The notes under the pieces were generated by a model, which was not told where the DNA came from, searched no databases, and saw only the letters and a list, made by a program, of their open reading frames with translations. Of a DNA stretch of 64,000 nt, positions 1 to 47,035 are shown piece after piece (position 1 is the stretch's first letter; each line of letters opens with the position of its first letter). The DNA comes from a virus, in IMG/VR virus record IMGVR_UViG_3300045988_177924. The stretch is one strand, 5' to 3'. The position numbers and the translations under genes are program-made.

Positions 1-1
1 T

Positions 2-154
2 AAGCAAGCGGAAGAAGCTTTGCGAATGTGCAAAGAATATTTGCGTAAACAAGAGTTGATTGCTGAACTTATTAAAGAATATAAACGTAAAGGGATTCCT
101 TCAGAAGAAATAGAGGAACTGCTTGCTCCTGAGTTTAAGGAGAGCAGCACTTGA
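2..154 (+). CDS. 3' end of an ORF entering from the left edge (partial; possibly small terminase subunit)
   Basis: Frame is open from the window edge to TGA 152-154 (...RMCKEYLRKQELIAELIKEYKRKGIPSEEIEELLAPEFKESST*). The stop overlaps the TTG start of the large terminase (TTGA). Function is guessed from position only. Confidence 0.3.
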   Translation, partial: KQAEEALRMCKEYLRKQELIAELIKEYKRKGIPSEEIEELLAPEFKESST

Positions 155-1827
155 TTTCAGTCTATGGGAATCTCACAGATAACGAAGTAAATATTCGCAA
201 ACAAGAAAGTTTTGAAAGATATAATCGGTTAATTCAATGGGGCCGCAAGCACCCCACGCGATTTATTGAAAAAATTCTTGGAATACAATTGTTGGATTAT
301 CAACGGTGGATTATTATGGGCACCTGGACGGCAGAAAAAGCCGCTTGGGTATGTTCACGAAACGCGGGTAAAACATTTTTGGGAGCGGTATATTTGATGG
401 CGAAGGCTATTTTGTTCCCACAATTTAAAATAAATATCATGAACGTTTCGGGGCGTCAGTCTTTTGACACCTTTATGAAAATCGAAGATATTGCAAAAAA
501 GAATATTGCTTCATTATTGAATACGACAGACGTGTTTTTTGATGAACTCATCAAGAGCAACGCTAATACCGACGGGTTTACCCATAGCCAAAAGGGTTAT
601 GAGTGTAATCTGTATAACGGTTCGCGTATTAGGGCGCTTGTGGGTAAACCAGAGACCGTCGTCGGTGTTCGTTCTAATATTAACTTCTATGACGAGGCGG
701 GAAAGATTCCACAGGCATTTTTCGATTTAACAGAACCTTTTACAGCGCAAAACCGCGACTTTAAAACTGGTTCTGGTTTTGACGCGTCGGTTTATCCTAA
801 GGATATACCAACACAGTGTATTTACTCGTCGTCAGCCGAAGACATTAATACCCATTTATGGTCAATGTATAAACTTTGTGCTACAAATATGATGATGGGT
901 ATACCTGGATATTTTTGTGCAGATGTCAACTGCGATATTCCACTTGCACCGAAACTCAACGGGAAACCAATGTCACCATTGCTTAAACAAAGTGAGATAG
1001 ATGACGCGCTAAAAAGCAATGAGTCTCGAGCAATGCGCGAGTATTATAACATATTCGATAACACGGGTGGTATTGACGCGTTAGTAAAACGACAAGATAT
1101 TTTACGAAACGAACAAGACTATTTACCAATCTTTAAATCAGAAGGTCCAGAACACCATTATGGTTTATTTTTTGACCCCGCATTGCAACAAGACAACAGT
1201 TTTGTGCTTATTGTTGAATATTGGAAAGACAAAAAACGCGGATGGATGGGTAAAATTGTTAATGGTATTAACCTTATCGAAAAATTACCAAACGGCGATA
1301 AGAAGCCCTTGCGTTCTCCTGAACAATTAGAGTGGATTCGCAAGCTTATTGTAGCATACAATGGGAAATCACCTGAGTACGAAAACGTTATGTTTTATGT
1401 TGACGCTGGTTCCGGTGGTGGTGGTCGTAGTTATGCTGACAACCTAATGCTTCCTTGGACAGATCGTGATGGAGTAGAGCATGCGGGGATTATCGACTTA
1501 ACTGATGATACAGCCAAAGAACAGGCAGAAAAATTCAGGCAAGCTAAGGATGTTTGTCGAATCATTGAGCCTCGTAAATGGCGTCCTACTATGTTTAGCG
1601 AATGCGCTGAAATGATTATCAACGATTATCTTATTTTCCCTATGCCCGTACCAAAACAAGGTGTTTGGGAAAAAGATGGCGAAAAATATGAACTTTCAAA
1701 AGAAGAATTAAGAGCATTGCTTGAAATTGATCTTATGAAAGAAGAACTTGTAGCAATTGTGAAAACAAAGACTCCGAGTGGTGATGTAAAATACGGATTA
1801 CCACCCGATAAGTCTCGTAAAATGCAT
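151..1827 (+). CDS. terL: terminase large subunit, exon 1
   Basis: TTG start 8 nt after AAGGAG. Walker-A-like VCSRNAGKTF near aa 67-76, and size and layout are typical of TerL. The uninterrupted ORF runs on to 1854 (..MHEQHCALAA*), but the conserved C-terminal nuclease motif is missing there and reappears in frame at 2067. Confidence 0.8.
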
Positions 1828-2066
1828 GAACAACATTGTGCACTTGCGGCATAATACATAAACCGCTCGATTAAATCTTGTCTAATTGACTTGGAGGTCC
1901 AGAAGTGGATAACAAGGCGGAAGTCAATGACACCGTGAACGACTAAACGACGAGAGCCCGCGTTAGCGGGTGTGCGCTAGTCTGAACTCGCGATATAACA
2001 ACAGAAACGCGAGAGAGGGGATGAAGAGCCCCTCCGCTTAGAAATAAGTCTTAAAGTAACAGAATG
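1828..2066 (+). ncRNA. putative ORF-less group I self-splicing intron interrupting terL
   Basis: 239 nt between ...SRKMH (exon ends with U1827) and DDRCYTCVLAAHH.... P1 candidate tgcaU(1823-1827)/Gtgca(1838-1842) has a U.G pair at the 5' splice site, and the last base G2066 could be omega-G. R-element-like gtgaacGACUAaacg (1935-1949), P8-like hairpin cccgc-gtta-gcggg (1957-1970), then UAGUC (1978-1982) pairing with GACUA as P7. P4/P5-like hairpin ttgactt...aagtcaa (1886-1927). 3' hairpins at 1987-2013 and 2015-2034. Confidence 0.6.
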
Positions 2067-2261
2067 GATGATAGATGCTACACCTGTGTGTTGGCAGCTC
2101 ACCACTTAGCACAATTGCGAAGAGAAGAAATTTTAGGTTCGGCTGAACCAACTACAAATATGGATGTTTTGTTTAGTAATCGAATTGCTCAAGGATTCAA
2201 GCAAAGACAAAGCGCCAATCCGTTTAGTGGATTCACTAATCCATTTGGGCGGAGAAGATAG
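2067..2261 (+). CDS. terL: terminase large subunit, exon 2 (C-terminal end of nuclease domain)
   Basis: Joining 1827 to 2067 keeps the frame and gives ...DKSRKMH-DDRCYTCVLAAHHLAQL.... This recreates an H-D-D...LA motif like the last catalytic Asp region of terminase nucleases. The ATG at 2064 has no RBS of its own. Confidence 0.6.
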   Translation, partial: DDRCYTCVLAAHHLAQLRREEILGSAEPTTNMDVLFSNRIAQGFKQRQSANPFSGFTNPFGRRR

Positions 2262-2281
2262 AAGCAAAAGGAGGCAGAAGG

Positions 2282-2695
2282 ATGATCTGTAAAATAATTT
2301 TCGATCATACTGGGATTGACATAGAAAATCTCTTAGATAAAATTGGGAAAATGGGCTCTTTTATGCTAATAAAAGGAGTAATTTATTTCCAAACACTGGG
2401 AGAGTGTTCTAAACAAAAATTAAAATCTGCTATCAAACGCAGTGGCGTGTCGGATTGTGTAATTTTGGAGATTACAGAAGACAGCCTTTGTAATGAGGGC
2501 GGATATGTTGCTGATTGGGCGCGTGAGCATTTTACTAATCTTGCAACCAAACGGGCGATAGACGAATTAAATAGCGAGAAATATCGGAAGAAAATGGAAA
2601 TCGAGGCACTTAAACTTGAGTTAGCCCAAGCCTTGGCTTCCGGCCAATTAATCGCAGTACCGAAACATCAAAAGGAGGATTGCACCAATGGGTGA
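2282..2695 (+). CDS. hypothetical protein (137 aa)
   Basis: ATG preceded by AAAGGAGG. The 3' end overlaps the next start. No recognisable motif. Confidence 0.7.
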   Translation: MICKIIFDHTGIDIENLLDKIGKMGSFMLIKGVIYFQTLGECSKQKLKSAIKRSGVSDCVILEITEDSLCNEGGYVADWAREHFTNLATKRAIDELNSEKYRKKMEIEALKLELAQALASGQLIAVPKHQKEDCTNG

Positions 2696-4640
2696 AGCCA
2701 ATAAGACCACAAACAAAGGTGGCCGTCCAAAGAAACAAATTCCCATTACCGAACAAGAACAACCGCAAGACTCCAAGTTGTTGATGACGACAGGAGGCGC
2801 TGGGACCGAAGTTAAAGATGTGTTGCAAGGCTGCACGGATTTCTTTAATCGGTTTTTAGGAGATGTTGATTCCAACAGTGTTCTTGGTCAAGGTATTTAT
2901 AATTTAAATCAATATAATCCATTTTTACAAAATACACGATTGAAGACGTTGGCGGGTCTGCCAATTGAGATGAGCAAAGATGGTATTATCAATGCGTTAA
3001 AAAACCCTCAATTCCACGAGGAAGATATTCGTGGGGCAGCGGCTTCATTATCGTCAAGCCAGTATTTGTATTATAAAATACTTCGTCAAGCGGGTGATAT
3101 CCCTCTAATGAAGTATGTTAAATATCCGCCTTTTTTAGAAGCATCTGAATATAAAACGGAAAAATTCAAAAAAGATGACGACTTTGTGGACGAGTGGCTC
3201 GAAAAATTCGATATAGTGAACACTTTTAAACGCATTGCGATTGAAGTGAAACGCGAAGGTAAGCCGAGTTATTTGTTGCGTAGTCATGTGACAAAAAAAG
3301 GTGGTAAAAAGATTGTAGATTATGCGGCGTTGCAAAAACTCCCGCCACAATTTGTCAAACTTACGGCAATTGGGGAACATGGTTTTGTAGCAAGTTTTAA
3401 TTTAATGGTCTTTATGAATCCAGCATTTGTTCCTGATCAATACCCCGCTTTTATTCAAAGAGTGTGGAGTGATATGATCAATAATAAAATTGCAGTCTTC
3501 GATCCTAAGAAAAATTCATACAAATTGGACATTGCGAAAGCGACTAACTACGCGTTCGTCGATGAGGACGGCAATTCTTATGATACATTGCTGGAGAGGA
3601 CTGAAAAAAGGACATATATGTTCTGGGTCCAATTACCTCAAGATTTGTGTTATACTTTCTGTAGCGATACCTCTACAGCTACCGCAGCGCCTGATACAGC
3701 AGGTCTATTTATGGATTTGCAAGAATTGACGGATTACTCGGTACTGGCGGGACTTATTGCTAGTACACCTTTGACGTCGTTGCTGACGGGTGAAATTGAG
3801 CTGATCCCTAATCCATCAACCGGTCGTGATCAGACGGCAATGAACCCCGAAACGGTTTTAAAATTCCAAAACTTGTTTAACAGTATGACGAGCACTAATA
3901 CGGAAGCGTTCTTTGCTCCGTTGAAGAATTTAAAATTGCAAAGTCTTAATAACGTTCCTAACAGTAGTGACATTAAGACTAAAGCGGTTTCAAACTTTAT
4001 TAGTGTCGCGGGCGAAGGGGGCAATATTATCGCTACTGAAAAACCGAGTATTGCGCAGGTAAAAACTGCTAATATGCTTTCGGCTGCCCAATATGATTTT
4101 GTGGTGAAACAGTTTAAATCAGCACTTAACAATATTGTTCAAGAATGTATAGGTGCCGATTACAAATGGAAAGTGGATATCTTTGGGGATATTTTCTCTG
4201 AACAAAATCAGAAAAAGTATTTGAAAGAACTGGTTACCGCAGGTATGAAAGGTTTGGTTCCTAAACTTCTTGCTTACGAGGATATAACTGTTAAAGACTC
4301 TAAAGCAGCAGAATTGTATTTGGACTCAATTGGATTCTATGACAATTTAACAACGCTCACGCAAGTTGCGGCCTCAAAGTTAAATACACAACAAGAAAAG
4401 TCAGCCGACTTAAACACTAACGAAGATGGTTCGGCTAAGAAAGTTGGCCGTCCCGCATTAGAAGATGAAGATATAGAGTCTGATGAGACTGCTGCGTCAC
4501 GCGAAAAAGGCGAAAACACAAGCGAGAATAAGGATATATATGCCGCAAAACGGTGTGCAATTTGCGGGGCAGAATTAGACAACGAAGATGATGTTCTTTG
4601 CGATGATTGTTGCGAGGCATATCTCGAAGAGCACAACTAA
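2688..4640 (+). CDS. putative portal protein (650 aa) with Cys-rich C-terminal tail
   Basis: AAAGGAGG 9 nt upstream of the ATG. Size and position just after terL are typical of portal. C-terminus reads RCAICGAELDNEDDVLCDDCCEAYLEEHN. No motif-level proof of portal fold. Confidence 0.5.
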   Translation: MGEANKTTNKGGRPKKQIPITEQEQPQDSKLLMTTGGAGTEVKDVLQGCTDFFNRFLGDVDSNSVLGQGIYNLNQYNPFLQNTRLKTLAGLPIEMSKDGIINALKNPQFHEEDIRGAAASLSSSQYLYYKILRQAGDIPLMKYVKYPPFLEASEYKTEKFKKDDDFVDEWLEKFDIVNTFKRIAIEVKREGKPSYLLRSHVTKKGGKKIVDYAALQKLPPQFVKLTAIGEHGFVASFNLMVFMNPAFVPDQYPAFIQRVWSDMINNKIAVFDPKKNSYKLDIAKATNYAFVDEDGNSYDTLLERTEKRTYMFWVQLPQDLCYTFCSDTSTATAAPDTAGLFMDLQELTDYSVLAGLIASTPLTSLLTGEIELIPNPSTGRDQTAMNPETVLKFQNLFNSMTSTNTEAFFAPLKNLKLQSLNNVPNSSDIKTKAVSNFISVAGEGGNIIATEKPSIAQVKTANMLSAAQYDFVVKQFKSALNNIVQECIGADYKWKVDIFGDIFSEQNQKKYLKELVTAGMKGLVPKLLAYEDITVKDSKAAELYLDSIGFYDNLTTLTQVAASKLNTQQEKSADLNTNEDGSAKKVGRPALEDEDIESDETAASREKGENTSENKDIYAAKRCAICGAELDNEDDVLCDDCCEAYLEEHN

Positions 4641-4659
4641 ATAAAGGAGGAAGTTAATC

Positions 4660-5163
4660 GTGAGATTACATGAAGAAACTTATAATGCGTTAAATGAGCT
4701 AATGAAGATGTGTTTTGAGATGAATGCTGTTGCTGACAATATCTACTATAATATGGCAAATCTGTATTATAATCATTCAGCAGAGTTATTCCATCATAGT
4801 TATGCACACGCTTGGGGTCAAGTTGCGGATATGATTAGCGACGAAATGCTCAAATTAAACGCGAGACCAATTAGGCTACCCGTGGAGGGAGCAAATGAAG
4901 AATATGATAATCTTGAACTCATGATGGTCGTCAATTTGGCTGCTGTTAATAAGGTTTTTGAGAAGTGTAAGGAAATCGTAGATTTGGCGGATATGCTGGA
5001 CGATGTGGACATCAGAATTTTTGGAGAAAATTTACTTAATGGTGTATTGTTGAATTATGTAAAACAATCAGACGAGTGGCTTAAGGTTATAAAAACCGTA
5101 CCGGCGTACCATTTTGATATTCACTTTAGCGATTATACACACTTCATTCCTATTGTCGAATGA
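4660..5163 (+). CDS. hypothetical protein (167 aa), helical
   Basis: GTG start 9 nt after AAAGGAGG. Function unknown. Confidence 0.65.
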   Translation: MRLHEETYNALNELMKMCFEMNAVADNIYYNMANLYYNHSAELFHHSYAHAWGQVADMISDEMLKLNARPIRLPVEGANEEYDNLELMMVVNLAAVNKVFEKCKEIVDLADMLDDVDIRIFGENLLNGVLLNYVKQSDEWLKVIKTVPAYHFDIHFSDYTHFIPIVE

Positions 5164-5899: not shown

Positions 5900-7360
5900 A
5901 TGAATCCAATGGTGTTTAGCCTAGAGGCCGATAGGATTAAGTTAAAGAAAATACTTGGTAGTAATTTCTTACAACTTGAGATGAAGGCTATTTCAGAAGG
6001 CGAAAATCGTAATCACAGTAGCTTCTCTTTAGAAGCGATGCAGGGGGCTCTTCCCAGTTTTAGAAACAAACCAATTTTGGGATATTTTAATACAAAAGAG
6101 CAAGATTTTGAATCTCACAACGGCACTTGGAAAAGAGATTCTGAGACCGACACACCTTATTGGGACACAACTATGCCCAACGGTGAGAGAATATTAGGAT
6201 TGATCAGAGAGTCTGATTCTATCTCTATAGAGCCTGATAATAAGGGGAAAAATTGGATTGTACTTACATGCGCTCTGTGGGTACAATACGCTTTGCCTCA
6301 AATTAAAAGGTTGCTTAAAGATAAGAAAAAGAAAGTCTCTGTTGAGATCGATATAAAGGACTACGAGGATAGGGATGGTATCAGATATATCAATAAGTTT
6401 GAACTTCTGGGCATCACTATATTAGGTTCGAAAAACGGGAAACCAGTTACGGAAGGTATCGAGGGTGCATCGGCGTCAGTCTTGGATATCATCGATAATG
6501 AGGTTTTCAACAGACAGAAGACGGCATTGTGTTTTGCCTACAAAGAATTGGATGGCGACGCAATGGAAGTCGAAAAATCTAACAAGGAGGATAGCGAGCA
6601 GTTGGACAATGAATTGACTTTACAGGAAGAAGCCCAAGTCGTTAACTGTAGTGAAGGTGAAGTGGCGCAAGAAGAGTGCCCAGTTGCACCGGAACAAGAA
6701 GACGCTCAGTGTCAAGATTGCCATATGGACGACGATAACGACGACGATCAAGATGACGATCAAGATGATGACGATTCAGATGACGACAAAGGTACCGATA
6801 ATCCTGAACCTGCATATTCGGAATGTCCCTCTGGTGAAGAAGGTGCAGAACCTGCTTATTCGGGAGAGCCCGAAGGCGACGGCGAACCTGCCCCTAATCC
6901 AGAAGCAGAGCTTTTGATGAAATGCGGCGAACTCGAAGCAAAAAATTGCGAACTTATGAAACGCATTGAAGAGCTTGAGTGTAAGATGGCCGAAAAAGAA
7001 GAAGCTTATTCTAAATATTTCGATTATGACGAGATCAAAGAACAACTCGCTAAAGCCAACCAAGCGCTATTTGCTATTGAGTGCGAGAAGCGTGTGGCAG
7101 AAGCGCACGAGCTTTTGGATGACGAAAACGTCAATAAAGAGCAATGTGATGCGATTTTCGATAAGTGCGCACGTGGCGAGTATGCTTCGTCTGACGCATT
7201 GCGTGCAGAAGTAGCATTGGCAGTCTTTAACGCGAACAAGGGCAGTAAAACTCACAAAAAAGAGACGTTTACCACACCTATCGCAAAACCCGTAGAAATC
7301 AAATCTGAGAAGAATATGAGTGCTATGGACAAACTAAAACTGTATGTTGGAAGAGAATAA
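5900..7360 (+). CDS. putative scaffolding (possibly protease-scaffold) protein with poly-acidic linker and coiled-coil C-terminus
   Basis: Lies between the portal-region genes and the capsid gene. Has an extreme acidic tract DDDNDDDQDDDQDDDDSDDD, then a heptad-like charged C-terminal half (ELEAKNCELMKRIEELECKMAEKEE...). Confidence 0.4.
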   Translation: MNPMVFSLEADRIKLKKILGSNFLQLEMKAISEGENRNHSSFSLEAMQGALPSFRNKPILGYFNTKEQDFESHNGTWKRDSETDTPYWDTTMPNGERILGLIRESDSISIEPDNKGKNWIVLTCALWVQYALPQIKRLLKDKKKKVSVEIDIKDYEDRDGIRYINKFELLGITILGSKNGKPVTEGIEGASASVLDIIDNEVFNRQKTALCFAYKELDGDAMEVEKSNKEDSEQLDNELTLQEEAQVVNCSEGEVAQEECPVAPEQEDAQCQDCHMDDDNDDDQDDDQDDDDSDDDKGTDNPEPAYSECPSGEEGAEPAYSGEPEGDGEPAPNPEAELLMKCGELEAKNCELMKRIEELECKMAEKEEAYSKYFDYDEIKEQLAKANQALFAIECEKRVAEAHELLDDENVNKEQCDAIFDKCARGEYASSDALRAEVALAVFNANKGSKTHKKETFTTPIAKPVEIKSEKNMSAMDKLKLYVGRE

Positions 7361-22083: not shown

Positions 22084-24189
22084 ATGCCTATTTATATTTA
22101 TAAAGGGAATAGTCAAATTAGCACAAATGCTGTAAGAAATGATAAAGTAGTTAAAGCAATTTACGCCAAAGAACAAGGACAAGAAGCTGTGTGTGTATGG
22201 GGTGGTGGCGTAAATCTTTTGCCTTTTGCGTACACTAAAGATGCTACTTCGGTAACGATTACTGGATTAAGGACCGGTCTTACCTGGGAGCACTTAACCA
22301 TTCCTGAAAGAGTTGAAAATTTACCAGTTACTCAAATAACATCAAACGCATTTAAGGATAGCACAACACTTCAATCAATTGAATTGCCCAATTCCTTAAT
22401 TAGTATTGGTAATGATGCTTTCAATGGCTGTACCGGGCTTACGAGCATCACAATCCCCGACAGTGTCACAAGCATAGGCTCTGATGCCTTCCGTGGTTGC
22501 ACAGGTCTTACTAATATAATAATCCCTAATGGTGTGACGTATATCAGCGCTGCCTTTAGAGATTGTGCATCGCTTGAAAGCATAACGATTCCGTTTGTTG
22601 GCGCCTATGACCCAGAGGGGTTTGGATACGATGAGGTGTTTGGCTATATATTTGGATATACTACGACAAGCAGTGAGTCCTCGGTACCAGGAGCGACTTA
22701 TCAATATTATTATGGTGGTTCTTCCAGGTATTTTTATTACTACATACCATCAAGCATAAAGTCCGTAATTATAAGAGGGGGAAACATTCCATCCTGTGCT
22801 TTCAAAAATTGCACCGAACTCACAAGCATAACAATCCCTGACAGCGTCACAAATATTGGCGATGATGCCTTCTCGGGTTGTACTAGTTTGACAAGCATAA
22901 CGATTCCCGACAGCGTGACGAGCATCAGCTCTAATGCCTTCGCGGGTTGCACGGGGCTTACGAGCATTACAATTCCTGATAGCGTAACGAGCATAGACCG
23001 CAATGCCTTCGATAATACAGCATGGTACAACAATCAGCCTGACGGTCTTGTATATGTGGGTAAATTCGCTTATAAGTACAAAGGCGAGATGTCAAGTGAT
23101 ACCTCGATTGTTTTAAAAGAAGGAACATTAGGTATTAGTAATTATGCCCTTAGTGATTACAGAGGTCTTACGAGCGTTACAATCCCTGACAGCGTGACGA
23201 ACATTGGTGATTCTGCCTTTTGGGCTTGCTCTAATCTTACGAGCGTAACAATAGGCAACAGTGTGACAAGCATCGGCGATGATGCCTTCTCCGGTTGCAC
23301 CAGGCTTACGAGCATAACAATCCCCGACAGCGTGATGAGTATCGGCGATGATGCCTTCTATGGCACTACTTGGTACAACAATCAACCTGATGGACTTGTG
23401 TACGCAGGTAAAGTCGCTTATAAGTATAAAGGAACTATGCCAAGCAACACCTCGATTGTATTAAACGAAGGAACATTGGGCATTGCCGATTTGGCCTTCT
23501 ATGGTTGCAGCAGCTTGACGAGCATAACTATCCCAAACAGCGTGACGAGCATCGGCGAGCGTGCCTTCGATGGTTGCACCGGACTTACGAGTGTGACAAT
23601 CGGAAATAGCGTGACGAGCATCGACGATGAGGCTTTCCGTAATTGCAGTGGTTTAACAAGCATCACAATCCCCGACAGCGTGACGAGCATCGGCGTTCAG
23701 GCCTTCTCTGATTGCACAGGGCTTACAAGTGTGACAATAGGCAACGGTGTGAAGAGTATAGACTATTGGGCCTTTCTTCGTTGCACGGGGCTTACGAGTA
23801 TCACGATCCCTGATAGTGTGACGAGTCTTGGCAAGCAGGTTTTCCAGGATTGTGCTGGGCTTACGAGCGTGACAATTGGAAACGGCGTTACGCGCATCAG
23901 AAGGTATGCCTTCGATGGTTGTACAAGTTTGACCAATATAACGATTCCTGACGGTGTGACGAGCATCGACGTTGCCGCCTTCTGTGATTGTACTAGTTTG
24001 ACACACATAACGATTCCAAACAGCGTGACGCGCATTGGCGGAATAGTCTGCCGTAACTGCACTGGTCTTACAAACATTATATTTAAGGGTACAAAAGCAC
24101 AATGGAATGCAATAACAAAGAGCACTTCGTGGAACTCCAACACAGGTAATTATACGATCCATTGTACAGATGGAGATATACCGAAATAA
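22084..24189 (+). CDS. BspA-type leucine-rich-repeat protein (701 aa)
   Basis: About 20 tandem ~23-aa units of the form LTSITIPDSVTSIGDDAFSGCTS, the hallmark of BspA/LRR_5 repeats. Ends with the typical ..F.GTKAQWNAI.. tail. No signal peptide seen. Confidence 0.8.
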   Translation: MPIYIYKGNSQISTNAVRNDKVVKAIYAKEQGQEAVCVWGGGVNLLPFAYTKDATSVTITGLRTGLTWEHLTIPERVENLPVTQITSNAFKDSTTLQSIELPNSLISIGNDAFNGCTGLTSITIPDSVTSIGSDAFRGCTGLTNIIIPNGVTYISAAFRDCASLESITIPFVGAYDPEGFGYDEVFGYIFGYTTTSSESSVPGATYQYYYGGSSRYFYYYIPSSIKSVIIRGGNIPSCAFKNCTELTSITIPDSVTNIGDDAFSGCTSLTSITIPDSVTSISSNAFAGCTGLTSITIPDSVTSIDRNAFDNTAWYNNQPDGLVYVGKFAYKYKGEMSSDTSIVLKEGTLGISNYALSDYRGLTSVTIPDSVTNIGDSAFWACSNLTSVTIGNSVTSIGDDAFSGCTRLTSITIPDSVMSIGDDAFYGTTWYNNQPDGLVYAGKVAYKYKGTMPSNTSIVLNEGTLGIADLAFYGCSSLTSITIPNSVTSIGERAFDGCTGLTSVTIGNSVTSIDDEAFRNCSGLTSITIPDSVTSIGVQAFSDCTGLTSVTIGNGVKSIDYWAFLRCTGLTSITIPDSVTSLGKQVFQDCAGLTSVTIGNGVTRIRRYAFDGCTSLTNITIPDGVTSIDVAAFCDCTSLTHITIPNSVTRIGGIVCRNCTGLTNIIFKGTKAQWNAITKSTSWNSNTGNYTIHCTDGDIPK

Positions 24190-28112: not shown

Positions 28113-31100
28113 ATGGAAGGAATGGACTATACTCCCATTTTAACAAGCGTTGGTTCGGCTGATAGTGCAATTATTGCGATGCTCGAAGATTCGCAACTTA
28201 CCGCAGAGAATTTAGGGACGACAGCCGCATATTTAACAGACACTTTAAAAACAACAACTGATAAACAGTTAGAGGCTGCAGTTCAACAACAAAAAATCAC
28301 ACAAGCCCAACAAAAGGCGCTTGCTTGGATTCGAGATAATTTTGAACAATTTCCTGGTGAAGTAAGGAAAACTCTTAAAGACACTTTTTCGAGTTTGTCA
28401 ACACAGATGGCCAAATTGCCTCCCGCTGTAGTCCACGAAGCTACTCGAACGTTAGTGTTGCCGTTGGTTGATAAAATTATCGGTAGCTTAAACGATGAGG
28501 AAATTGGCCGCTTGGCTATGGCGAAGATAAATCAGGGTTTAGGTGTGGACAACTTAAACAAGTACTCTGCTGGTTATAGAGCAATCTTTGAACAAATTAA
28601 CAAAGAGTACAAATCGGTTTTAAAAGATTCTACTGACCTTAGTGAACAATTTAAAAAAGCCAAGAAAGCACTTGCTAACACCACTTTAGCGGACTTTTCA
28701 TCCACGAGTGGCTCGCCAGCGGTGAATAGAGAAATTGCCACATTGCTAGATATGGCAAAAAAGGCCAAACAACAAAAAAATCCCGATTACAATCCAACGA
28801 TAACCAACAAGGATGTTACTGGTAGTGCTCGTAGAGTAACAAAGGTCGCAGAAAAAATACAACAAAACGCTTTCTCGACGCAGAAAGAAGCGGAAAGTAT
28901 TATTCTTCAATATTTTGATCCCAAAAAATTGACTCAAGAGGGGAAAAATCGTGCCAAGCAAGCCGCGGAATATGCTGCTAATATGCAAAAAGCGGGATAT
29001 GGAGTAAGCTTCGCCCAAGATAACGGTTCTCAAGAGATTAAAGTTATTGTTTATGACAAAAATAGTGTCAATGCTTTCGATAGAAAGGGAAGGGTAAATC
29101 GTCAAAATGCCGCCATTGCTTCTTTTGCGGTTGGGGGCTTAGATAAGCGAAATGACGATTATGTAATTGATCAAGCCAAGAGAGTGAAAGTGTCGGATGC
29201 CGAGGCTCAAAAATTTGTTGAGATGTCTCAACATGCTCCCAAAACAATCGCAAGTGCGCGTAAACGTATTGGGGACATTAAAAACGAAACTGTTCACAAA
29301 TCAACCTCAAAGTTTGATCGACAAGACAACCTGTATGGTGTTGGCGCAGATAAGGCGTTAGTTGAAAGCAGAACTCGTTTTGAGAATGAGGCGAAACGTT
29401 TAGCAAAATTTGAGAAAGATCAAGGTTCTACCATGACCGAATCGGAACTCGTTAAGTTGTTTTCTCAAATGTTTGTTAGCTTTGCTGGATTTGGGGAGCG
29501 GGATATTGGCGTACAAAAGAGTTTACGAGACCAACAAATGAAAAACGGTCTCTCAGACGCAGTTATACGAGAATTTAATAAAAACTTTTCTTGGTTACCT
29601 TTGGTTGGCTCAATGGGTGAGGAAGATTCTGGCCACTATCGACTGTGGGGCGCCAAAGAAATGAAGGACAAAATGGCCCTCGTAACTCGTAAAATACAAG
29701 GTCGTGATATCCAGCCTTACGCTAAACAAGGTAAACCCGAACGTGTACAAAACATAGAAGTTGACGTCAACCGTTTGTTTGATCAAGTTGACGATTTGCT
29801 TAATAGCGCAGACGACAAAAAACGCGAGGCGGCGCAACTCCTTGATAAAAATCGTGACTTAATCGAGGGTTTGGTTGATGGTATGGCCCTGGTGTCGAAA
29901 GATCAAATTCAAAATTTGGACACAATTCGAGAGGGCGTATCGGTTAAGATTTCTAAAGCCGATTTGTTCAAATACGGGTTAAAAGGCAAGAAGAAGAAAA
30001 GTGCCGAAAACAGACGAAAAGCCTATCAAAAACTTTTGGCGGCCGAAGGCCGAGAGGCCACGGATGATAATGTTGATTTTTATATTGATCCTGAGACAGG
30101 AGATGTAACCTTAACCGGGAAAGAGGTGGTTAGGGCGCATACGGGTACAAAAGCCAATAGTGCCTACGGTAACTTACGTGTCGTTTATCGTGAAGTAGTT
30201 CCAGAAGTTATTAAGGCTATTTCCACAATAACAGGAGTTGAATTAATGCCCGAAAAAGACTCGCGCGCGACTGTGGTGTCAGCAAGAGAAGAAACCAGTT
30301 CAAGAAATATCGGACCGCTTGTAACTAGGGCTATAGACAACGCGATAAATGAACTAGATAAGAGTCAGATTGAAGCCAGTGTGAACAAACTTGGTACCAC
30401 AAACCTGTCGACCAACATTGGACAAGCCTTAGTTGACGTTTTGTTGAAAAAATTGAGCTTTAGCGATGCTTTGGACAAGTACGTGGGCTCAAACGTATCG
30501 GCTCGTACCAAATTTACGGGTGAAACCTTATATCTGTTAGATGAGTTGACGGGCGGAAAAAATGGATATGAAATTGTTGATGGGAAATTACAAACTAAGG
30601 CCCTTGCGTCTAGCTTTACTGATGTTGTTGGCGCACGTTATGGTGAATATGAACCAAGAGGTGCGGCCAGCTTGCCAACAAACTGGGAAGTAGAAGATCT
30701 TGAACGTTCGGCTCGTGCAGCCGGTGTGGAAATAACCCCCGAAAATAGTGATTTTTTACGCACTGTTCAACTTGTTGCTTTTGGAGCAACCGCAAACGAT
30801 ATCGAAGAAAAAAAGAAACTTATACGAGACTATAATGAACATATTGAGCGTCAAGCTCAACTAATAGGTTCGCGAGCGGGGTTAAACCCTGATTATATCA
30901 ATCGAAATGCGGGTGTTAACACAATCGTTGTTGGCTCAAAAGACATATATGGCAATCAAGCACACTTTATTGACATAAACGCACTTCGTCGCACTGAGAA
31001 ATTAGACAACGGACAAAGTGATCCCGAACAAAGAGGTGAAACCATTTGGGGTAAACTTGATGAGCAGTTGCAATCTATAGACCAAACTCAAGCAAAAATT

Positions 31101-34100
31101 TTGGTTGATTTGGGCGCGGATATGGGAGAAGCGCGATATTTCGATTTGGGCAAATACACTGATGAAATTGGAGATTATAACGAAAGTTTAGAAAGTTTAC
31201 TTGACGCGGTTCGAACGGGGAAAACAGCGTCCGAAAAGAAAGACTTGCTAACCGCTGTCTTAAAGGCAGAGGCTTACAACTTTGAAAACACTGGCGGGGC
31301 TGTTAATGAACAATTCTTAGCAAAAATGGCTCGCCACCAAGAAGAGGCAAGGAAAGCGGCTCAAGAGAGATATGATAAGAAATATAAGAAACGTTTAGCG
31401 TACTCTACGTTTTATGGCGAAAATACCAATATTGTAGCGACAGATACTACGAATGAAGTTGACGCCTTGCAAGAACGCATGAAGGATAGCGGTACTTATG
31501 TCGATAAAGAACATATTAGAGCAAGTGTCGCGCTTGGGTTGAATGCCTATAAGGGTGATGATAATGATGCTTTTGTAAAAAACTTAGCGCAATATTTGCA
31601 ACTTTTTGCAGAACAGGGGCAAGACAAAGCTATCGAATCAGCTCTCGCCAATCAAAACTTTAAGAATTTTGCCGAAATGGTCGATTTTGCGACCAATATT
31701 TTTACCACGGGAACCTCAGAACATGAGAATTTTTATGGCGGCACGAATCCTATTTTAAGTCGCGGTGTTGAAGCTGTATTGGGGAGGCAGCCTTATAGCC
31801 AAGCCATTAACTTACAATACGGAGGGTTGGTCTTTGGTAAAGAGGGCCTAGGAACAAACGTAATCGAAAGTAACCGTGGTCTCAACAAATTGATCATGGG
31901 GGATTTTGACGGTGATAAATTATACACCGCTTTAGTTCAACTTCGACAGGCTGCCCAGCTAATAGGCGCTACTTCCGAACAGTTTGGCTGGTTAGACGAA
32001 ACCTTGGAAAGAGTCAAACGTTATAATGAATTTTTATATAGAGTTATAGGAAAGAATATTCCGGCTATTACCTCATCCGACGCCGACTCATCGGTAATTC
32101 TTGATTTGGCGAAAAATCAAGTGTTAAACGATAAGCAAATGGCAATAGTGCGTTCCTATCAAAACCAGGCGAAAGACAAAACGGGTAACTGGTCCAACGT
32201 TGCAAAAGGTGCTCGAAATGTTTTAGAGTTACAAAAGTTGGGTACGGGTGCTGTTGTAGGCGGAGATTTGAATTCAACTATCGACTTTATTAAGGGGTCG
32301 TTTGTTTTTGAAGCACTAGAACAAGCTGAGCAAAATGCGATTTCTTCTAAGAAACTTTGGGACGTTGCAATCCAAGATATGCAAACCACGCTTGGTTCCG
32401 ATTTGGATAAAGTTGATGAACAAACGTTCGCTGAGCAACTTGACAAGTCTTTTAATATCGCGATTAACAAAGTTATTGATGAAGTTTACAAAAATAAAGC
32501 AAATGTGAACGATGTGATTCAAGCCGGTGCGGAACAAGGAATCTATAAAGACAACAAATTAGAGGCCTGGCGTTCCCAACGAATATTGGGCACTTTGGCG
32601 ATGAGCAAAAACGTTTCAGCGTACAAAGCTTTGGAAGAGTCTGGTATTTCCCCAGGTGACTTGGAAGCAATTGCTCAAATTGTTAAACCGGGCCGGAATT
32701 GGGAAAGTTTCAGAGGTCAACAAGGTGACTTTCAAAGTCAGTTACTGGACCAACTGAATCAAGGCGCTTTTAACCAATTTGGCTTTAGTGTAGACACATT
32801 AAAGGCATTTGGCGGCAATTTAGATGATGATTTTTTAGCGCAGGCTAAACAAGCACACGGGCGATTCCGTGAAGAAACAGGTCCTACAGGGCTTGGTACG
32901 GCAGCTGGAGAACTTATCAAAGCTATTAACAAATTAACGGTAGCAGAGACAAAAGTTGATAAGACAGGATTCGACCCTAAAATTGTTAGTATATTAGAAG
33001 AAATTCGAGACTTGCTTGCTAAACAAGGCCGAGGCGGTCTTAACGGACGTTATGGGCAGACCTATATGACACCAACGGGTATTGTCTCGAGTTTAAATCC
33101 TTCTTCGATCGATGAATCGGCTTGGGGTTATTTACAGGGAAGAATGTTAGGGTTTAAGGGTTCAAATATCGATTGGACAAAACTAAATGTCAAAGAAAAG
33201 GCAAAACAGTTTGGCTACGCGGATATAGAACAATTTAAACAAGATAGAGAAGGTGTAGTTAGTACGTTTATAGGAACACTAGCTCACGCATTTTCTGAAG
33301 GTGAGATTAAACAGGATCCTGAAATTTTTAAACAAGCAACAAAGGATTTTACACAAGCTTTATCAATGCTGTTTGATAAAAAGGATGTCGACAAATATTT
33401 ACTTGTTGCAAATGAATATGCACAAAGGGGTTATAACGCATACGACCGATTAGCTGGACCAGACGCGTATCGTGCGGCGGAAGAACGGGTGCGATTAAAT
33501 GAGAATTCTGATGTGGTAAAAGGTAAGACTGACGCCATTTACACAAGTAAGCGTATGGCTGAAAGTGGTCAAGAATATCAAGTGTTTAATGTTGTTGACT
33601 TTAAAAACAAGGCTAAAGTTGATGCTAATAGTATAGAACAGGTCTTGATTTATGTCGAGATGTACCGCCGTATTAAACAAGATTTGGATAAATTGGTGCG
33701 AGAAATTGGAGAAGACGCTGCTTTGGAAAAAATGAGCAAGCAGACACTCTTGTCGGCTGATACATTACGCCAATTACACGAATCGTTGGATGTTAGTGCT
33801 CAAATTGTCCAAAATTATCAAGGGAAAACCAAAGTGTATGATGTCGCAAATGTTCCCAGAGACATTGCGCAAGCTCTGGTGGAGGGGCGTTCTTTAACGG
33901 CAGAACAACAAAAGATTATAAATAATGCTGCCACAGCGTCGTCGCCACTGACACAAACCATGTCGCCTGATTTCCAAAAAAAATATTATAAGCTCACCGG
34001 TGAAATTTTTGGGGTAGATGGGTATAGTAAAAATACGGTTGATTATGAGAAAAAAATAGCTGAACAAAAAGCTCTTGAGGAACAATTAAATAAAGTTCAA

Positions 34101-37100
34101 ACAGAGCAAGGCGAAGAATCAACCGTGTTTAAGAAACTCACACAATATTACAACAATCTTCTCGAAGAAATTAAGGCTCTGGAAGAAATTCGCAAACGAC
34201 AGGTTCAAGAATTAAAACTTACCAAAGGTATGAAGGGGTCGGTGACACGCACGACTCGCAATCAAGTTCAACAACTTCTCGAAACGGGAGATTTACACTT
34301 TGGGTATGAAAAAATTCTAAAAGATGATGAGAAACAGCGCTTACTTGCCCAAAAGCAACGAGAAGCCGTATTGAACCAGTACAAACGCTATAACGATCAG
34401 ATTGCTAAGACGGAAAAGGACATGTTGGTTTTGGACAAACAATCTAGAACCACACCGAGTAAACTCGAAAGAGGAATTCAAGCCGATAGAGGACAAATTG
34501 ATATACTAAAGGCTGAACTCAAAGAGTTAGTTGAAAAACGTAATCTGCTTGTTGAAAACAATAAATTGACACAGGCAGAAACCGCCGAAGCCGATGCTCA
34601 ACTTCAAACCAAGAGAGAATTAAACAGGCTTAAGGTTGCTGGAATGGCCAAGGGCGCCGGGAATTGGTTAGATGTTATTGGAAGTGGTGTTAAAAATACC
34701 ATTACGAGAATGTTCGATTACAATGGTGTATATCGTATTCTGAATCGTATAACACAAGGTTTGCGTCAGCTTGTGCAACAGGTAAATGAGCTTGATGTTG
34801 CAATGTTCAACTTGCAAGTTGTTAGTGGTGACAGTCGTCAAGAAGTTTCAGCATTAATTAATGATTATGGCAAACTTGCTCAACAATTACACACTACTAC
34901 AACTCAAATTGCTGCTTCGGCAAACGAGTGGCTTAGACAAGGTTATGAAGCAGGACAGGCTAACGAGCTGATCAAAGCTTCAACATATTTGAGCAAATTA
35001 GGCATGATTGAGGCTGGCCAAGCTACAACTTATTTGACGTCTATGATCAAGGGCTTCAAATTAGAGGCTGCCGACGCAGTTAATATTGTTGACAAGTTAA
35101 CCGCTGTTGATATGGAAGCGGCTGTTAGCGCTGGTGGTATTGCTGCAGCAATGCAAAACGTTGCAACAACTGCTCAGTTAGCGGGGTTATCCATTGATAA
35201 AACAATTGGTTACTTGTCAACCATGATTGAAGTTACCCAACGAGACCCTTCCTCTATGGGTATGGCTTTGCGCACGGTTTTAGCGCGTTATGGTAATGTT
35301 AAAGCAGGGACTTTCACAAATATGACGGGTATAGAAAGTTCCGATGCTGATTTAGAAAATGTTAACGATATTGAAAAAGTTTTAGGCAAAGTAGGAATAC
35401 GCATTCGCGAAAATGCACAAGAGTTTAGAGATTTCGGAGACGTAATTGATGAACTGAGTGAAAAGTGGCAAAAATACGATTCTGTTACTAAAAACGCGAT
35501 TGCTACTGCTATGGCTGGTGTTCGTCAACGTGAATCTTTCTTGGTTTTAATGGAAAACAAAGATAGGGCTGACGAGTTGGAAGATGTGTCATCTTTATCA
35601 AAGGGCACCGCCGACACAAAATATGCTGCTTACCAACAGACGTTAATGGCAGCAAAGGCCGATTTACAGACGTCACTACAAAGTTTGGCAAAATCAATAC
35701 AAGACAGCGGATTACTTATTGCCTTTACCAAGTTGGCTAATATTTTGATTAAAACGGTTGTTCCTGGGTTTAACGCGCTTGCTTCTATGCTATGGGCGCG
35801 AAATTCGTTTAAACTAACAGAACAAATCAAATATAGTTTAAACCAACGTAAAACAACTTCCGCAGCCTCTCTCGGATTTTTTGCACAAAAAACACAACAA
35901 GAAGCATTAAGAAGACAAGAGTGGCAACAGGAGTTTTATAAAAAGAAAGAGGGCACTAATCAAACGTATGTTGACAGGTTATTGGGGAAAACATCACCCA
36001 AGACTGCGCTTTCGTCGTTTACTAATGTGTTGAATGATGCGTCTACAGCAGTACGTGGTTTTACGGGTGCCATAAATGGCTCACCGGTTCAGTCCACAAC
36101 CTCTTCTCAAGCACCATCGAAGACGCCTGTGGTAGATCCAAGGCGTCTGGTGTATACCGAGGCCGGCGAGTGGCCTAGTGTAGATGAATACGCCAAAGGT
36201 TCTAGGTTTAGACGCCTTAATAGGGCAAAAATTCGTAAAGATTTACAAAGCGGTCGCATAACCACTGTTGACGCGAGCAATATTAAACAAAAATATAAAC
36301 AAATAGCAAAAGAAGATCGACAACAAGCCAAAGCACTTTTAGGCCAGCAAATTACAGGGAACGTAGCAGGTGCGGTTGGCGCCGGTGTCACCTCTGCATT
36401 AACCACGGGGTTTAACCAAGAGGGTTCCGCAGGGGCGAAGGCGACTGCTGGAGTTACAGCTGGTGCTTTGACAGGTGTTGGTGCATTATTTGGTCCAATG
36501 GGAGCGGTTATAGGTTCCACTTTGGGTTCAATATTGGGACCGGTTTTTGCTAAATTGGTTGACAAAGAAGAAAACGAACGTAAACAACGTGCAGAAGCAG
36601 CTCAGAAACAATTGGACGCTTTAAATTCATTAAACAATACATTTGATGAAGTGCATGATTATACCGAGAAAGAGTATTTAACTTCAGAGGCCATTTTAGC
36701 TATTAAAGAGCGAGTTGACTCTATTGACGAGCAGATGGCTACAAGTGGTTTAAGTTTCGACGATTATCTTAAACAAGCTGCTACCCAACTTGGATTGGGT
36801 GAGGATTTTCAAACTATAGAAGATATTCGTGAGCTATTAACCGCTGCTGATGAGAAAACTCGTCAAAAGGCACAAGAGGTGTTTGACTTAGCCCAAAGTA
36901 TGGCCAAAGTACAAACAACGCAAGAGTCCAAGGCAGTGTCGGATATGTCATATGATGAGAAGAGAGTTTATTGGCGGGCATTAGACAAAGAGTATATTAA
37001 ACAAGCGTTTATTACATCTGGTCTGGAGCAAATGTCGCTTCGTCAGTTGTCTCAAACAAATCTTGATGACGCAATCAAACAAGTTGCCGCACAATTTGAA

Positions 37101-44551: not shown

Positions 44552-47035
44552 ATGGCAACATTAGGAAGTCTGCCCATCGGGGCGAAAATAAAAGTACCTC
44601 ATTCGGTAATAGGGGATATCATATTTCTCAAGTGTGACCAAAATCACGAGGGATATCCCGAAAACTCAACGACGCTTATTACGGACAGCATTATTTTATT
44701 CCGTCCGTTTGATGCAAAAGAGCCACAGAATGACACTTTTGCACAACAGAGGAATAAAGAAGGAAACAACCGCTATTCTGTATCAAACATAGACCAATGG
44801 TTAAATTCATCAGCTTCTGCCGGCAATTGGTATTCGCCACAACACTCCAAAGATCAGGCTCCAGACAGCTGGAGTGTTGCAACTCAAAATTTTTATGCTG
44901 CAGATGCTGGATTTCTGAGGGGGTTTAACGCACGGTTTGTTTCAGCACTTAAAGATACTACGATAACAGTTGCGCGAAGCACAACAGAAGACGGGGGCGG
45001 TTATGATACTCTTGTAAGGAAAGTTTTTTTACCGTCAAAAGCAGAACTCTTTAATCAGGCCGAAAACTCAATTATGGAAGGCTCATTGTTGCAGTATTTC
45101 CAAGCAAACACCGATGATATAAGAATAGCTATTATGTCTAGATACTGTGCGGAAGACAACAACAAGCGGGCAGAACAATTAGGCGAATCGATTCGATATT
45201 TACTTGAGGCGGGGAAAAATGGAGCATACCGGTTGAGAACGCCACAAGCTAGCCACGGTTCTTTCGTTAGATACGTAACCACTTCGGGTGCATTATATCA
45301 GAATGCGGCATTTTCTACTTATGAAAGTGGTATTCGCCCAATGTGTAATTTGGCTTCCGACACTTTCGTCTCTGACCAACCCGATAGCGACGGAACTTAT
45401 CAAATTGAAGATCCGCCTATGGAAATTTCTGGCAATGAAGAACCGTTGGGCACATTTGTTTTTCCATTTGTTTATAAGTATAATATACTTAACGCAACCG
45501 GCGTTACCGTGGTTGAAAAACTAAATCAAACACAAGTGCGCAGCTATACTGCCACCAGCGACGAAGAACAAACTTTCGCTTTAACTAATGAGCTGTGGGC
45601 TACTGTGTCAAATGGAGACAACTTCATTCAGATTACCGCCACAAAAGATGACAAAACAGTTACACAAACAAAGCATTTTATTAAAAACTCGACTTTGCAA
45701 CTAAAATACACTGTGAGTCCATCTACAACGACACAACCGACCGCAATCAACGTAGAACTAGACTATGCCAAACCATTTGGCGCAGATTTAGAAGTGTTAG
45801 TATGTAACAACGGCAACGATGAACAACCCACTTGGGAAGATATGACCACGGCGGTCAAAATGGGGGCAAATCACATTTTTAAAAACACCGCGAAAACAGC
45901 CACACAATGGAAACCCATGCTTCAAGTTTCTATAACGCGCGATTCATCAACCGGCGACATAAGATTACGCGGTATTAAAACCGTATTTAACAAAGACCTT
46001 GATCAAGGACGACTTGAAAACATATATGGTGTAGACTTTGTTGGTTCTGAGGATCCAAACGCCCTTGTACGAACGGACGATGCTGTTGGTTTGAATGTAA
46101 CGGTCGGCACTTCAGAAATCACGAGCGATTTCGACAACTGTTATCCTTGGAATAATATCAAAGAGATCACCGACGAATTTGGGAACGTGTTTATCAAGAT
46201 ACCGAAATTCTATAGCAAAATTACAAAAAACGCGGACGGCACCTATAAGCACCAACTTTCTGGCATAAAACATGAAGGTTATGACACATTGTTTAAAGTT
46301 GGGGATAAAGAAATAGACTACGTCTTGGTCGGCAAGTACGAAGGAAGTGGCTCGTCGTCAAAAGTATGGTCGAAATCGGGACAAACGCCGCTTGTAGATA
46401 TTACAATGGACGACTTCCGTAACGGGTGTAAGGCGCACGGCGCAGGCTATCAGCAGTACGACTTTTTGATTGACCTTATCTTGAAAGAATTGTGGCTTGT
46501 CGAAATGGCGACTACAAACTGTCAGTCGATTATGTATGGATATGTCAATGGCTCCTTATCAACGAGTAACACGGGCACAACTGACAGCGTTGCCACTCCG
46601 TCCGGTTCACCAGAAAGCAATACCGACGGCGAACACGCTTGTAAATACCGTGGTATAGAAAACCCGTGGGGTAATATCTCTAAGTGGTGCGACGGTATAT
46701 CATTCAGCGGCTCATCGGTGTATGTATGTACAGAACCAAACGCCTATTCTGCGGGCAAGACTACGGATACTTATGTACTATATGGTGAAAGAGCGGTTAC
46801 CAGCGGTTGGGTAAAGACTGTTGCCCCGCTTAAGGAAAACTCACTTATCCAATACGTAACAAACATCGGTGGCGACGAAAGCACTTATTATAGCGACAAG
46901 TCGTATCAAGGCGGAACCGTTCTCTATTGCGGTTACATCAGCACGAACGCTGGCTTGTGGTCTTGGAATGGTGGCAAATCTGCGTCGTACTCAAGCTACA
47001 GCCTTGGTGGTCGCCTTTGCTATAAACCTGTTTAA
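44552..47035 (+). CDS. receptor-binding protein with C-terminal C-type-lectin/FGE-like domain (827 aa)
   Basis: GGGAGG RBS. The C-terminal ~335 aa are a diverged paralog of the 932-bp repeat domain (..YRGIENPWGNISKWCDGI.. ...GGRLCYKPV*). The N-terminal part has a ..YRLRTP...GIRPMCNL pattern. Confidence 0.6.
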   Translation: MATLGSLPIGAKIKVPHSVIGDIIFLKCDQNHEGYPENSTTLITDSIILFRPFDAKEPQNDTFAQQRNKEGNNRYSVSNIDQWLNSSASAGNWYSPQHSKDQAPDSWSVATQNFYAADAGFLRGFNARFVSALKDTTITVARSTTEDGGGYDTLVRKVFLPSKAELFNQAENSIMEGSLLQYFQANTDDIRIAIMSRYCAEDNNKRAEQLGESIRYLLEAGKNGAYRLRTPQASHGSFVRYVTTSGALYQNAAFSTYESGIRPMCNLASDTFVSDQPDSDGTYQIEDPPMEISGNEEPLGTFVFPFVYKYNILNATGVTVVEKLNQTQVRSYTATSDEEQTFALTNELWATVSNGDNFIQITATKDDKTVTQTKHFIKNSTLQLKYTVSPSTTTQPTAINVELDYAKPFGADLEVLVCNNGNDEQPTWEDMTTAVKMGANHIFKNTAKTATQWKPMLQVSITRDSSTGDIRLRGIKTVFNKDLDQGRLENIYGVDFVGSEDPNALVRTDDAVGLNVTVGTSEITSDFDNCYPWNNIKEITDEFGNVFIKIPKFYSKITKNADGTYKHQLSGIKHEGYDTLFKVGDKEIDYVLVGKYEGSGSSSKVWSKSGQTPLVDITMDDFRNGCKAHGAGYQQYDFLIDLILKELWLVEMATTNCQSIMYGYVNGSLSTSNTGTTDSVATPSGSPESNTDGEHACKYRGIENPWGNISKWCDGISFSGSSVYVCTEPNAYSAGKTTDTYVLYGERAVTSGWVKTVAPLKENSLIQYVTNIGGDESTYYSDKSYQGGTVLYCGYISTNAGLWSWNGGKSASYSSYSLGGRLCYKPV

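Follow-up and report, generated by a model that had tools for sequence, protein, structure and literature searches.

The locus examined here raises the question of why the gene for a phage large terminase (TerL) should end ahead of its nuclease motif, with a separate open reading frame (ORF) following shortly afterwards, and of what the stretch between the two might be. In the window—the whole stretch of 64,000 nucleotides analysed—the interrupted TerL ORF extends, according to the ORF list, on the + strand from TTG at 151 to TAA at 1854 and encodes 567 residues with the C-terminus ...KSRKMH-EQHCALAA*, i.e. it ends before Asp560. It is followed by an ORF of 65 residues at 2064..2261, which opens with ATG and starts MDDRCYTCVLAAHHLAQ / MDDRCYTCVLAAHH...; no Shine-Dalgarno sequence was found in the upstream stretch of the window, GTCTTAAAGTAACAGAATG, in contrast to the two genes that follow at 2282 and 2688 (AAGGAGG and GGAGG, respectively). 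An earlier note, made from the letters alone, had claimed that the first ORF lacks the C-terminal nuclease motif, that the second one, devoid of a ribosome-binding site, encodes the C-terminus of TerL, and that the removal of an ORF-less group I intron restores the protein. The present results agree with this reading as a whole: the positions 1828-2066 very probably represent a compact intron of group I that lacks a homing-endonuclease gene and is inserted between codons 559 and 560 of terL in a phage of gut Clostridia, its splicing being predicted from the fold and from the intron family. The gene is arranged as follows.

151..1827, + strand: terL exon 1, codons 1-559, covering the ATPase domain and the greater part of the nuclease domain, last codon CAU (His559); based on the ORF list, PHROG matches, the alignment with T4 gp17 over Walker A/B, and homologs
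1828..2066, + strand: predicted group I intron of 239 nt without an ORF; borders from intron-less alleles, match at 1869-2024 to R2 (the covariance model built in this analysis), 21 bits with RF00028, and a minimum free energy (MFE) z-score of -3.49
2067..2261, + strand: terL exon 2, DDRCYTCVLAAHHLAQ... up to the stop (codons 560-623); its product is homologous to the C-terminal part of TerL proteins that have no interruption

Concerning the host gene, ORF 151..1854 has large-terminase matches in PHROG, and a PDB sequence search with TerL gave an alignment with T4 gp17 that covers the Walker A/B region, the ATPase region alone and not the nuclease part being aligned; Pfam did not find a terminase domain in the exon products. 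Joining 1827 to 2067 keeps the frame and yields a product of 623 residues in which the HDD motif is restored, as had been proposed. The search with this spliced protein returned 629 homologs, among them P0001 (94% identity) and P0002 (85%), both of 623 residues, with 100% query coverage and without any interruption; the comparison with intron-less homologs suggested in the earlier note thus gives a match from end to end. Dozens of further homologs, of 623-630 residues, run through the junction as a continuous ...K(M/L)HDDRAY(T/C).... In an alignment of 43 homologs, D342, D418, D560, D561 and R562 are invariant and H559 is nearly so, both exons keeping all the invariant residues. Exon 2 is the true C-terminal end of TerL. 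In the AlphaFold2 model of the spliced protein (mean pLDDT 83.9), a confidently predicted helix, 561-583 (pLDDT > 90; block pLDDT 93 and 91), starts with D561, and Foldseek matches the model to the full-length large terminases T4 gp17 (E 3e-15), D6E, HK97 and Sf6, as well as to the nuclease domain of G20c (TM 0.72). The gene has the make-up of a phage large terminase: an ATPase (Walker A/B) in the N-terminal part and, in the C-terminal part, an RNase H-like nuclease whose acidic residues are conserved. The HDD motif is probably catalytic, supplying a metal-binding Asp (D560/D561) of that nuclease, judging from its invariance, from where the model places it and from what is generally known about nucleases of TerL. 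Longer homologs also occur, namely P0114 (1010 residues), P0115 (779 residues) and P0116 (773 residues); the first of them carries the intein/homing-endonuclease Pfam domains PF05204 and PF14528, indicating that the TerL family has been invaded by inteins, too.

It could be asked whether TerL is simply made as two polypeptides, of 567 and 65 residues, which assemble, the spacer being an ordinary intergenic region. The ATG at 2064 does open an ORF over exon 2, but, in addition to having no ribosome-binding site ahead of it, this ATG is formed by the last three intron bases, and relatives lack it or have it out of frame (the intron of L001 ends ...ACGUG, and the introns at a second site described below are in phase 1). 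Moreover, the spacer holds a conserved, covarying ribozyme fold, and most homologs are single chains rather than proteins naturally ending at ..MHEQHCALAA next to a separate gene, which makes a two-polypeptide terminase extremely improbable. With a group I intron left unrecognised, on the other hand, gene callers give precisely a truncated terminase of 567 residues plus an orphan ORF of 65 residues, and many such truncated entries from this TerL family are already present in protein databases; they stop either directly past the His (..HKQHCALAA and similar) or past HDDRA. The gain from recognising the intron is therefore one of annotation.

The insertion site lies between the codons for His559 and Asp560 of the HDD motif. 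The claim that a 239-nt insert, 1828-2066, splits terL at this place is confirmed by intron-less alleles, which fix the borders to the base (L011, L004, L005, L007, L009, L012 and L214). All but the last are viral contigs, L011 with 98.6% protein identity, that read continuously ...CA(C/T)|GA(C/T)GAT AG..., the predicted spliced junction of the window being ...AAAAUGCAU|GAUGAUAGA.... The ligated junction was not found in viral contigs, and the metagenome scan gave one contig, L214 (OIEN01000143.1; 95% nucleotide identity), with exactly the predicted junction CGTAAAATGCAT|GACGATAGATGCTA. Since G1828 and G2067 are the same base, the window alone leaves the border ambiguous by 1 nt; in group I introns a U precedes the 5' splice site, and this rule, together with the introns of relatives that start with A, settles the ambiguity. 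A megablast of the positions 1-4700 of the window against GenBank phages gave no match, and blastn of the intron gave one weak record only.

An insertion of another kind (an error of assembly, a miniature transposon or an intron of group II), for which nothing specific speaks, would have to account for the fact that the insert occurs at the same base in assemblies made independently of each other, from IMG/VR, Logan, ENA and GenBank MAGs. The borders are without terminal inverted repeats or target duplication, and there are neither group II features nor Rfam matches in whole-window scans, so the chance of such an origin is practically negligible.

The insert, on the other hand, contains the canonical P3-P9 core of a group I intron, including both domains (P4-P6 and P3-P8) and the pseudoknot of P3 with P7, as well as P1 with its U.G wobble, P10 and the terminal guanosine. 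The individual elements are listed below, all of them on the + strand.

1823-1827 / 1838-1842, + strand: P1, UGCAU (5' exon) with GUGCA (internal guide), the wobble U1827.G1838 being at the 5' splice site
1834-1837 / 2067-2070, + strand: P10, CAUU with GAUG (the first four bases of exon 2), directly adjoining P1
1846-1849 / 1863-1866, + strand: P2, hairpin GCGG/CCGC with the conserved loop CAUAAUACAUAA that contains UAA 1852-1854; 3/4 pairs compensatory
1876-1882 / 1949-1955, + strand: P3, enclosing P4, P5, P6, P6a and the 5' strand of P7; 7/7 pairs compensatory
1890-1893 / 1913-1916, + strand: P4, inside P3
1898-1901 / 1906-1909, + strand: P5, inside P3
1918-1920 / 1933-1935, + strand: P6, inside P3; paired in 100% of cells, with swaps
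1923-1925 / 1929-1931, + strand: P6a, inside P3; paired in 100% of cells, with swaps
1941-1945 / 1978-1982, + strand: P7, GACUA with UAGUC, pseudoknotted with P3
1957-1961 / 1966-1970, + strand: P8, hairpin CCCGC-GUUA-GCGGG within P7; pairs compensatory
1987-1992 / 2008-2013, + strand: P9, in the peripheral 3' domain (1987..2049)
2015-2020 / 2029-2034, + strand: P9.1, in the peripheral 3' domain
2036-2040 / 2045-2049, + strand: P9.2, with a GAAA loop; site of the GIY-YIG ORF in L006 and L008
2066, + strand: terminal guanosine (omega G), just before the 3' splice site

The guide CAUUGUGCA (1834-1842) shows unbroken complementarity to the ligated exons UGCAU|GAUG, and the in-frame stop UAA 1852-1854, corresponding to intron nucleotides 25-27, is situated inside the loop of P2. 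Thermodynamic folding recovered every non-pseudoknotted helix (MFE -71.4 kcal/mol, z-score -3.49). The hallmarks pointed out in the earlier note—a P1 of tgcaU/Gtgca with U.G at the 5' splice site, a terminal G, and an R-like element followed by a P8-type hairpin and by UAGUC closing P7—could all be located, the R-like element being GUGAACGACUAAAC. The U.G pair is present in 8/8 same-site introns, a G ends 10/10 of the same-site introns with a reliably located 3' end, and P7, presumably the guanosine-binding helix, is paired in 30/30 cores, with A-U replaced by G-C in 4 of them. Note that the 3' end of L205 was judged mis-located, the pattern match being probably inside its endonuclease ORF, and this sequence was left out of the full-length alignment.

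Some traits of the core are unusual: P4 is short (4 bp) and J3/4 is long (7 nt), while P7.1/P7.2 are absent, G1956 alone separating P3' (1949-1955) from P8 (1957-1970). Because P7.1/P7.2, the criterion of subgroup IA, are not there, the intron does not match the usual phage IA2 type. A longer P4, UUGACUUG/CAAGGCGG, was ruled out, its 3' bases covarying with their P6 partner instead.

In order to compare the fold among relatives, about 30 related cores were collected from other phage contigs by a scan for the conserved J3/4-P4 stretch, the contigs of truncated TerL entries being fetched as well; the same alignment with the pairing partners slid served as a control. In the alignment of 30 cores, 93.2% of the cells are paired, versus 38-45% when slid, with 24/33 pairs compensatory. 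For the eight full-length ORF-less introns at the same site the values are 95.6% versus 32-46%, with compensatory changes in 33/61 pairs, including those of P1 and P10 with the exons. The third alignment (A5), of 11 sequences outside the model seed, gave 97.7% versus 39-53% and 22/28 compensatory pairs; it was derived from R2 matches and is thus fitted to the model, so that its pair counts lean towards the structure. In P1, two pairs exhibit compensatory exon/guide changes, the variants being UGCAU/GUGCA, CCAU/GUGG and GCGCAU/GUGCGC; P10 varies from CAUU/GAUG in the window to CGUU/GACG in L008 and UGUC/GACG in L207; and P9.2 covaries as well, with GCUUA/UAAGU in the window versus GCUCG/CGAGU in L006/L008. 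Based on this strong covariation and on the intron-less alleles, the group I fold is not a chance pattern.

These data also bear on the idea of a group I intron that has decayed and lost its splicing, leaving terL as a pseudogene in a defective prophage or a phage remnant. The missing endonuclease gene would be in keeping with it, ORF-less introns being an expected stage of degeneration in the homing cycle (general knowledge; PMC3984707). Decay is nevertheless very unlikely here, given that all core helices are intact, together with the P1/P10 pairing to the intron's own exons, that L003 has the same 239 nt without a change and L010, a diverged phage, has them at 98.7% identity, and that every invariant residue is kept in both exons. 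In addition, the 64 kb around the locus are densely coding, with ORFs of at least 200 residues placed nearly end to end on the + strand.

Concerning the covariance-model searches, the Rfam model of group I introns (Intron_gpI, RF00028), recommended in the earlier note as a check, did not bring the expected support: applied to 501 nt of the window, it gave 21 bits, a value below the gathering score of 50 and weak on its own, with E 0.0037 valid for 501 nt only. Whole-window Rfam scans at gathering and E-value thresholds reported nothing, and none of the 18 sister loci reached the threshold of RF00028, their sole Rfam match being an unrelated abiF RNA motif (RF03085, 46 bits vs gathering 37) at 1537-1573 of L032, upstream of terL in a related phage contig. 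Both RF00028 and the GISSD models under-represent phage introns (PMC11878797), and the shortfall is read here as a limit of the model, not as evidence against the fold. R2, for its part, matches the window at 1869-2024 with 137 bits and detects this core with 89-139 bits in 13 loci that were not part of its seed; in the non-seed loci L029, L031, L032, L202-L207 and L209, the matches (89-139 bits) lie directly 3' of the truncated TerL ORF. A second R2 match in the window, 6106-6257 (14 bits, E 0.19), was taken as chance, since it is inside ORF 5900-7360 and recurs at the equivalent place in the intron-less L214.

The ORF list contains no ORF within the 239 nt, i.e. the homing-endonuclease gene is absent, as claimed before. 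Relatives, however, do carry one. In L006 and L008 (4678-5964) the insert sits at the same base but amounts to 1287 nt, with a core 95.8% identical to that of the window, and its P9.2 loop is replaced by an ORF of 349 residues containing the Pfam domain GIY-YIG (PF01541, 47 bits vs cut-off 22.6); GIY-YIG ORFs are found downstream of the cores in L187 and L205, too. The spliced frame, the uninterrupted homologs, the covarying fold and these endonuclease-bearing relatives together support the reading as a group I intron. The window copy itself is, as judged from these comparisons, a non-autonomous, ORF-less member of a mobile lineage. Compared with the window, L010 has an intron 98.7% identical within flanking exons of 85% identity, the latter climbing to 92-95% around the site, and the core of L008 is 95.8% identical with exons of 83.5%; between the window and the intron-less L011, identity is 75% in the junction bin and 93.6% overall. 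Such a pattern, read as a sign of lateral movement, is what would be expected from homing with co-conversion, but general recombination would also give it.

A sister intron of the same family is located 10 nt downstream, past HDDRA and base 1 of the Tyr codon, in phase 1, in L029 (4640-5000), L032 (4630-4960) and L031 (4630-5900). These second-site introns score 109-128 bits with R2 and possess their own P1, e.g. GAGCGU/GCGCUC; the copy of L031 holds an ORF starting MKSGIYGIKN, which is GIY-YIG-like. Two introns of the same family within 400-900 nt were observed in L102 (3122-3808), L124 (1967-2979) and L162 (2339-2890, - strand), which suggests multiply interrupted genes. In L207, an IS605 OrfB / Cas12f-like TnpB gene (520-1467) is found directly upstream of a 5'-truncated TerL ORF of 381 residues still with the intron; the arrangement looks like an IS insertion into terL.

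With regard to the host, the nearest genomic copies of terL, L208 and L209, come from MAGs that bear the labels uncultured Clostridia, with 99% identity, and Lachnospiraceae, with 85%, the Lachnospiraceae copy having the intron (R2 111 bits at 4219-4375). The labels point to gut Clostridia as hosts. The lineage comprises phages of about 117-135 kb in Clostridia/Lachnospiraceae MAGs with SPbeta-like neighbour genes, the phage of the window being about 117 kb.

If the intron splices as its fold predicts, the guide of the pre-mRNA would pair with both exon ends, forming P1 and P10 and aligning the exons. A free guanosine held in P7 would then attack 3' of U1827, after which G2066 would take over the same P7 site and the 5' exon would attack 3' of G2066, the ligation of ...AUGCAU and GAUGAU... 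giving the mRNA for the 623-residue TerL. In the unspliced RNA, translation would reach no further than the UAA of the P2 loop, which precedes the core, leaving a protein of 567 residues without Asp560, Asp561 and the C-terminal helix. This product, an ATPase without the nuclease helix, might speculatively serve as a regulated, nuclease-dead isoform of TerL. Having no endonuclease gene, the intron is unable to home by itself; it represents the ORF-less form of the one bearing a GIY-YIG gene in P9.2 in close relatives, and its spread or persistence would probably depend on recombination with such endonuclease-bearing relatives.

That phage terminase genes can harbour group I introns is established (reviewed in PMC3984707). 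The ones in terL include term-IVS1 and term-IVS2 of B. cereus prophage, and phage K1E has one as well (PMC2504315); they are known from 5/52 Bastillevirinae genomes, SIOphi and phiAGATE being examples, and the SIOphi intron splices in vitro (PMC11878797). An early in-frame stop upstream of the core was noted for the introns of B. cereus-group phages (PMC2504315). The introns in terL of Bacillus phages and prophages (PMC11878797, PMC2504315) resemble that of the window in belonging to Firmicutes phages, in being inserted in frame at conserved codons, in having the early stop and, with regard to the family as a whole, in existing in versions with and without a homing-endonuclease gene. According to their descriptions, however, they are IA1/IA2/IA3-like, whereas the window intron is without P7.1/P7.2 and stays below the RF00028 threshold; by the same descriptions, both its host gene, the SPbeta-like TerL of gut Clostridia phages, and its place of insertion, His|Asp-Asp in the nuclease motif of the C-terminal part, set it apart from the Bacillus cases. 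Lactobacillus phage LL-H (NC_009554) also has a group I intron in terL, annotated as the joined CDS 1647..3785 with the HNH ORF168, but this one is found in the 5' portion of the gene, which encodes the ATPase, and is associated with an HNH endonuclease; with 15 bits and E 0.07 in the R2 search, it belongs to a different intron lineage.

The introns of T4 td and Twort orf142, of type IA2, share with the window intron the general mechanism, the R/S-like strands of P7 (ACGACUA...UAGUC) and the location at conserved codons of essential phage genes. Introns of this type carry P7.1/P7.2 between P3' and P8, where the window intron has a single nucleotide.

The same core family was found in two deposited phage records outside terL. 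In MW202674.1 (L216 2496-2658; R2 132 bits) it occupies a gap within a P22-type coat gene split into two CDS, and in Roseobacter phage CRP-118 (OR420741.1; L217 2510-2669; R2 112 bits) it splits the ribonucleotide reductase gp44/gp45; the intron is annotated in neither record. Compared with the window, both have other host genes, other P1/P10 guides and unrelated hosts, freshwater and marine, respectively. In total, at least three deposited records contain unannotated relatives of the window intron. It is conceivable, although on balance rather doubtful, that all of them represent a compact, widespread and uncatalogued lineage of phage group I introns, colonising terL, where it uses two sites separated by 10 nt, as well as genes for the coat and for ribonucleotide reductase in phages of unrelated hosts, and missed by the standard Rfam model. 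Its traits may be the lack of P7.1/P7.2, the invariant UCUAAUUGACUUGGA over J3/4 and P4, and the P9-P9.1-P9.2 tail. Should this lineage be real, it would merit a subgroup or a covariance model of its own. The family shows a blind spot of RF00028, in that an entire lineage of phage introns escapes scans based on Rfam, and the intron counts in phage metagenomes are therefore too low. It should be pointed out that, group I introns in terL being already documented, the find is well supported but fairly ordinary and leaves the current understanding of group I introns unchanged. The set of introns might nevertheless serve, as a small natural system, for studies of how introns home and switch targets at a catalytic motif; it comprises ORF-less and GIY-YIG copies, insertions at two sites separated by 10 nt, and alleles that have the same flanks but no intron.

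Several other features of the window may be mentioned. ORF 22084-24189 (701 residues) contains tandem 69-nt (23-residue) repeats at 22822-23888, in several arrays with 70-76% matches, which may, as a guess, be leucine-rich-repeat-like. A module of about 345 residues, with 75-97% identity, is common to ORFs 44552-47035, 50230-52713 and 55064-57469, where it is C-terminal twice and N-terminal once, and a stretch of 240 residues is common to 50230-52713 and 59090-60379; the ORFs sharing these modules could be putative tail-fibre or receptor-binding cassettes. Tandem repeats of 123 nt occur at 59262-59746, and a single ORF of 3775 residues extends over 28113-39440. Finally, an Asp-rich tandem tract (GACGATCAAGAT repeats) is present at 6731-6787, in ORF 5900-7360.
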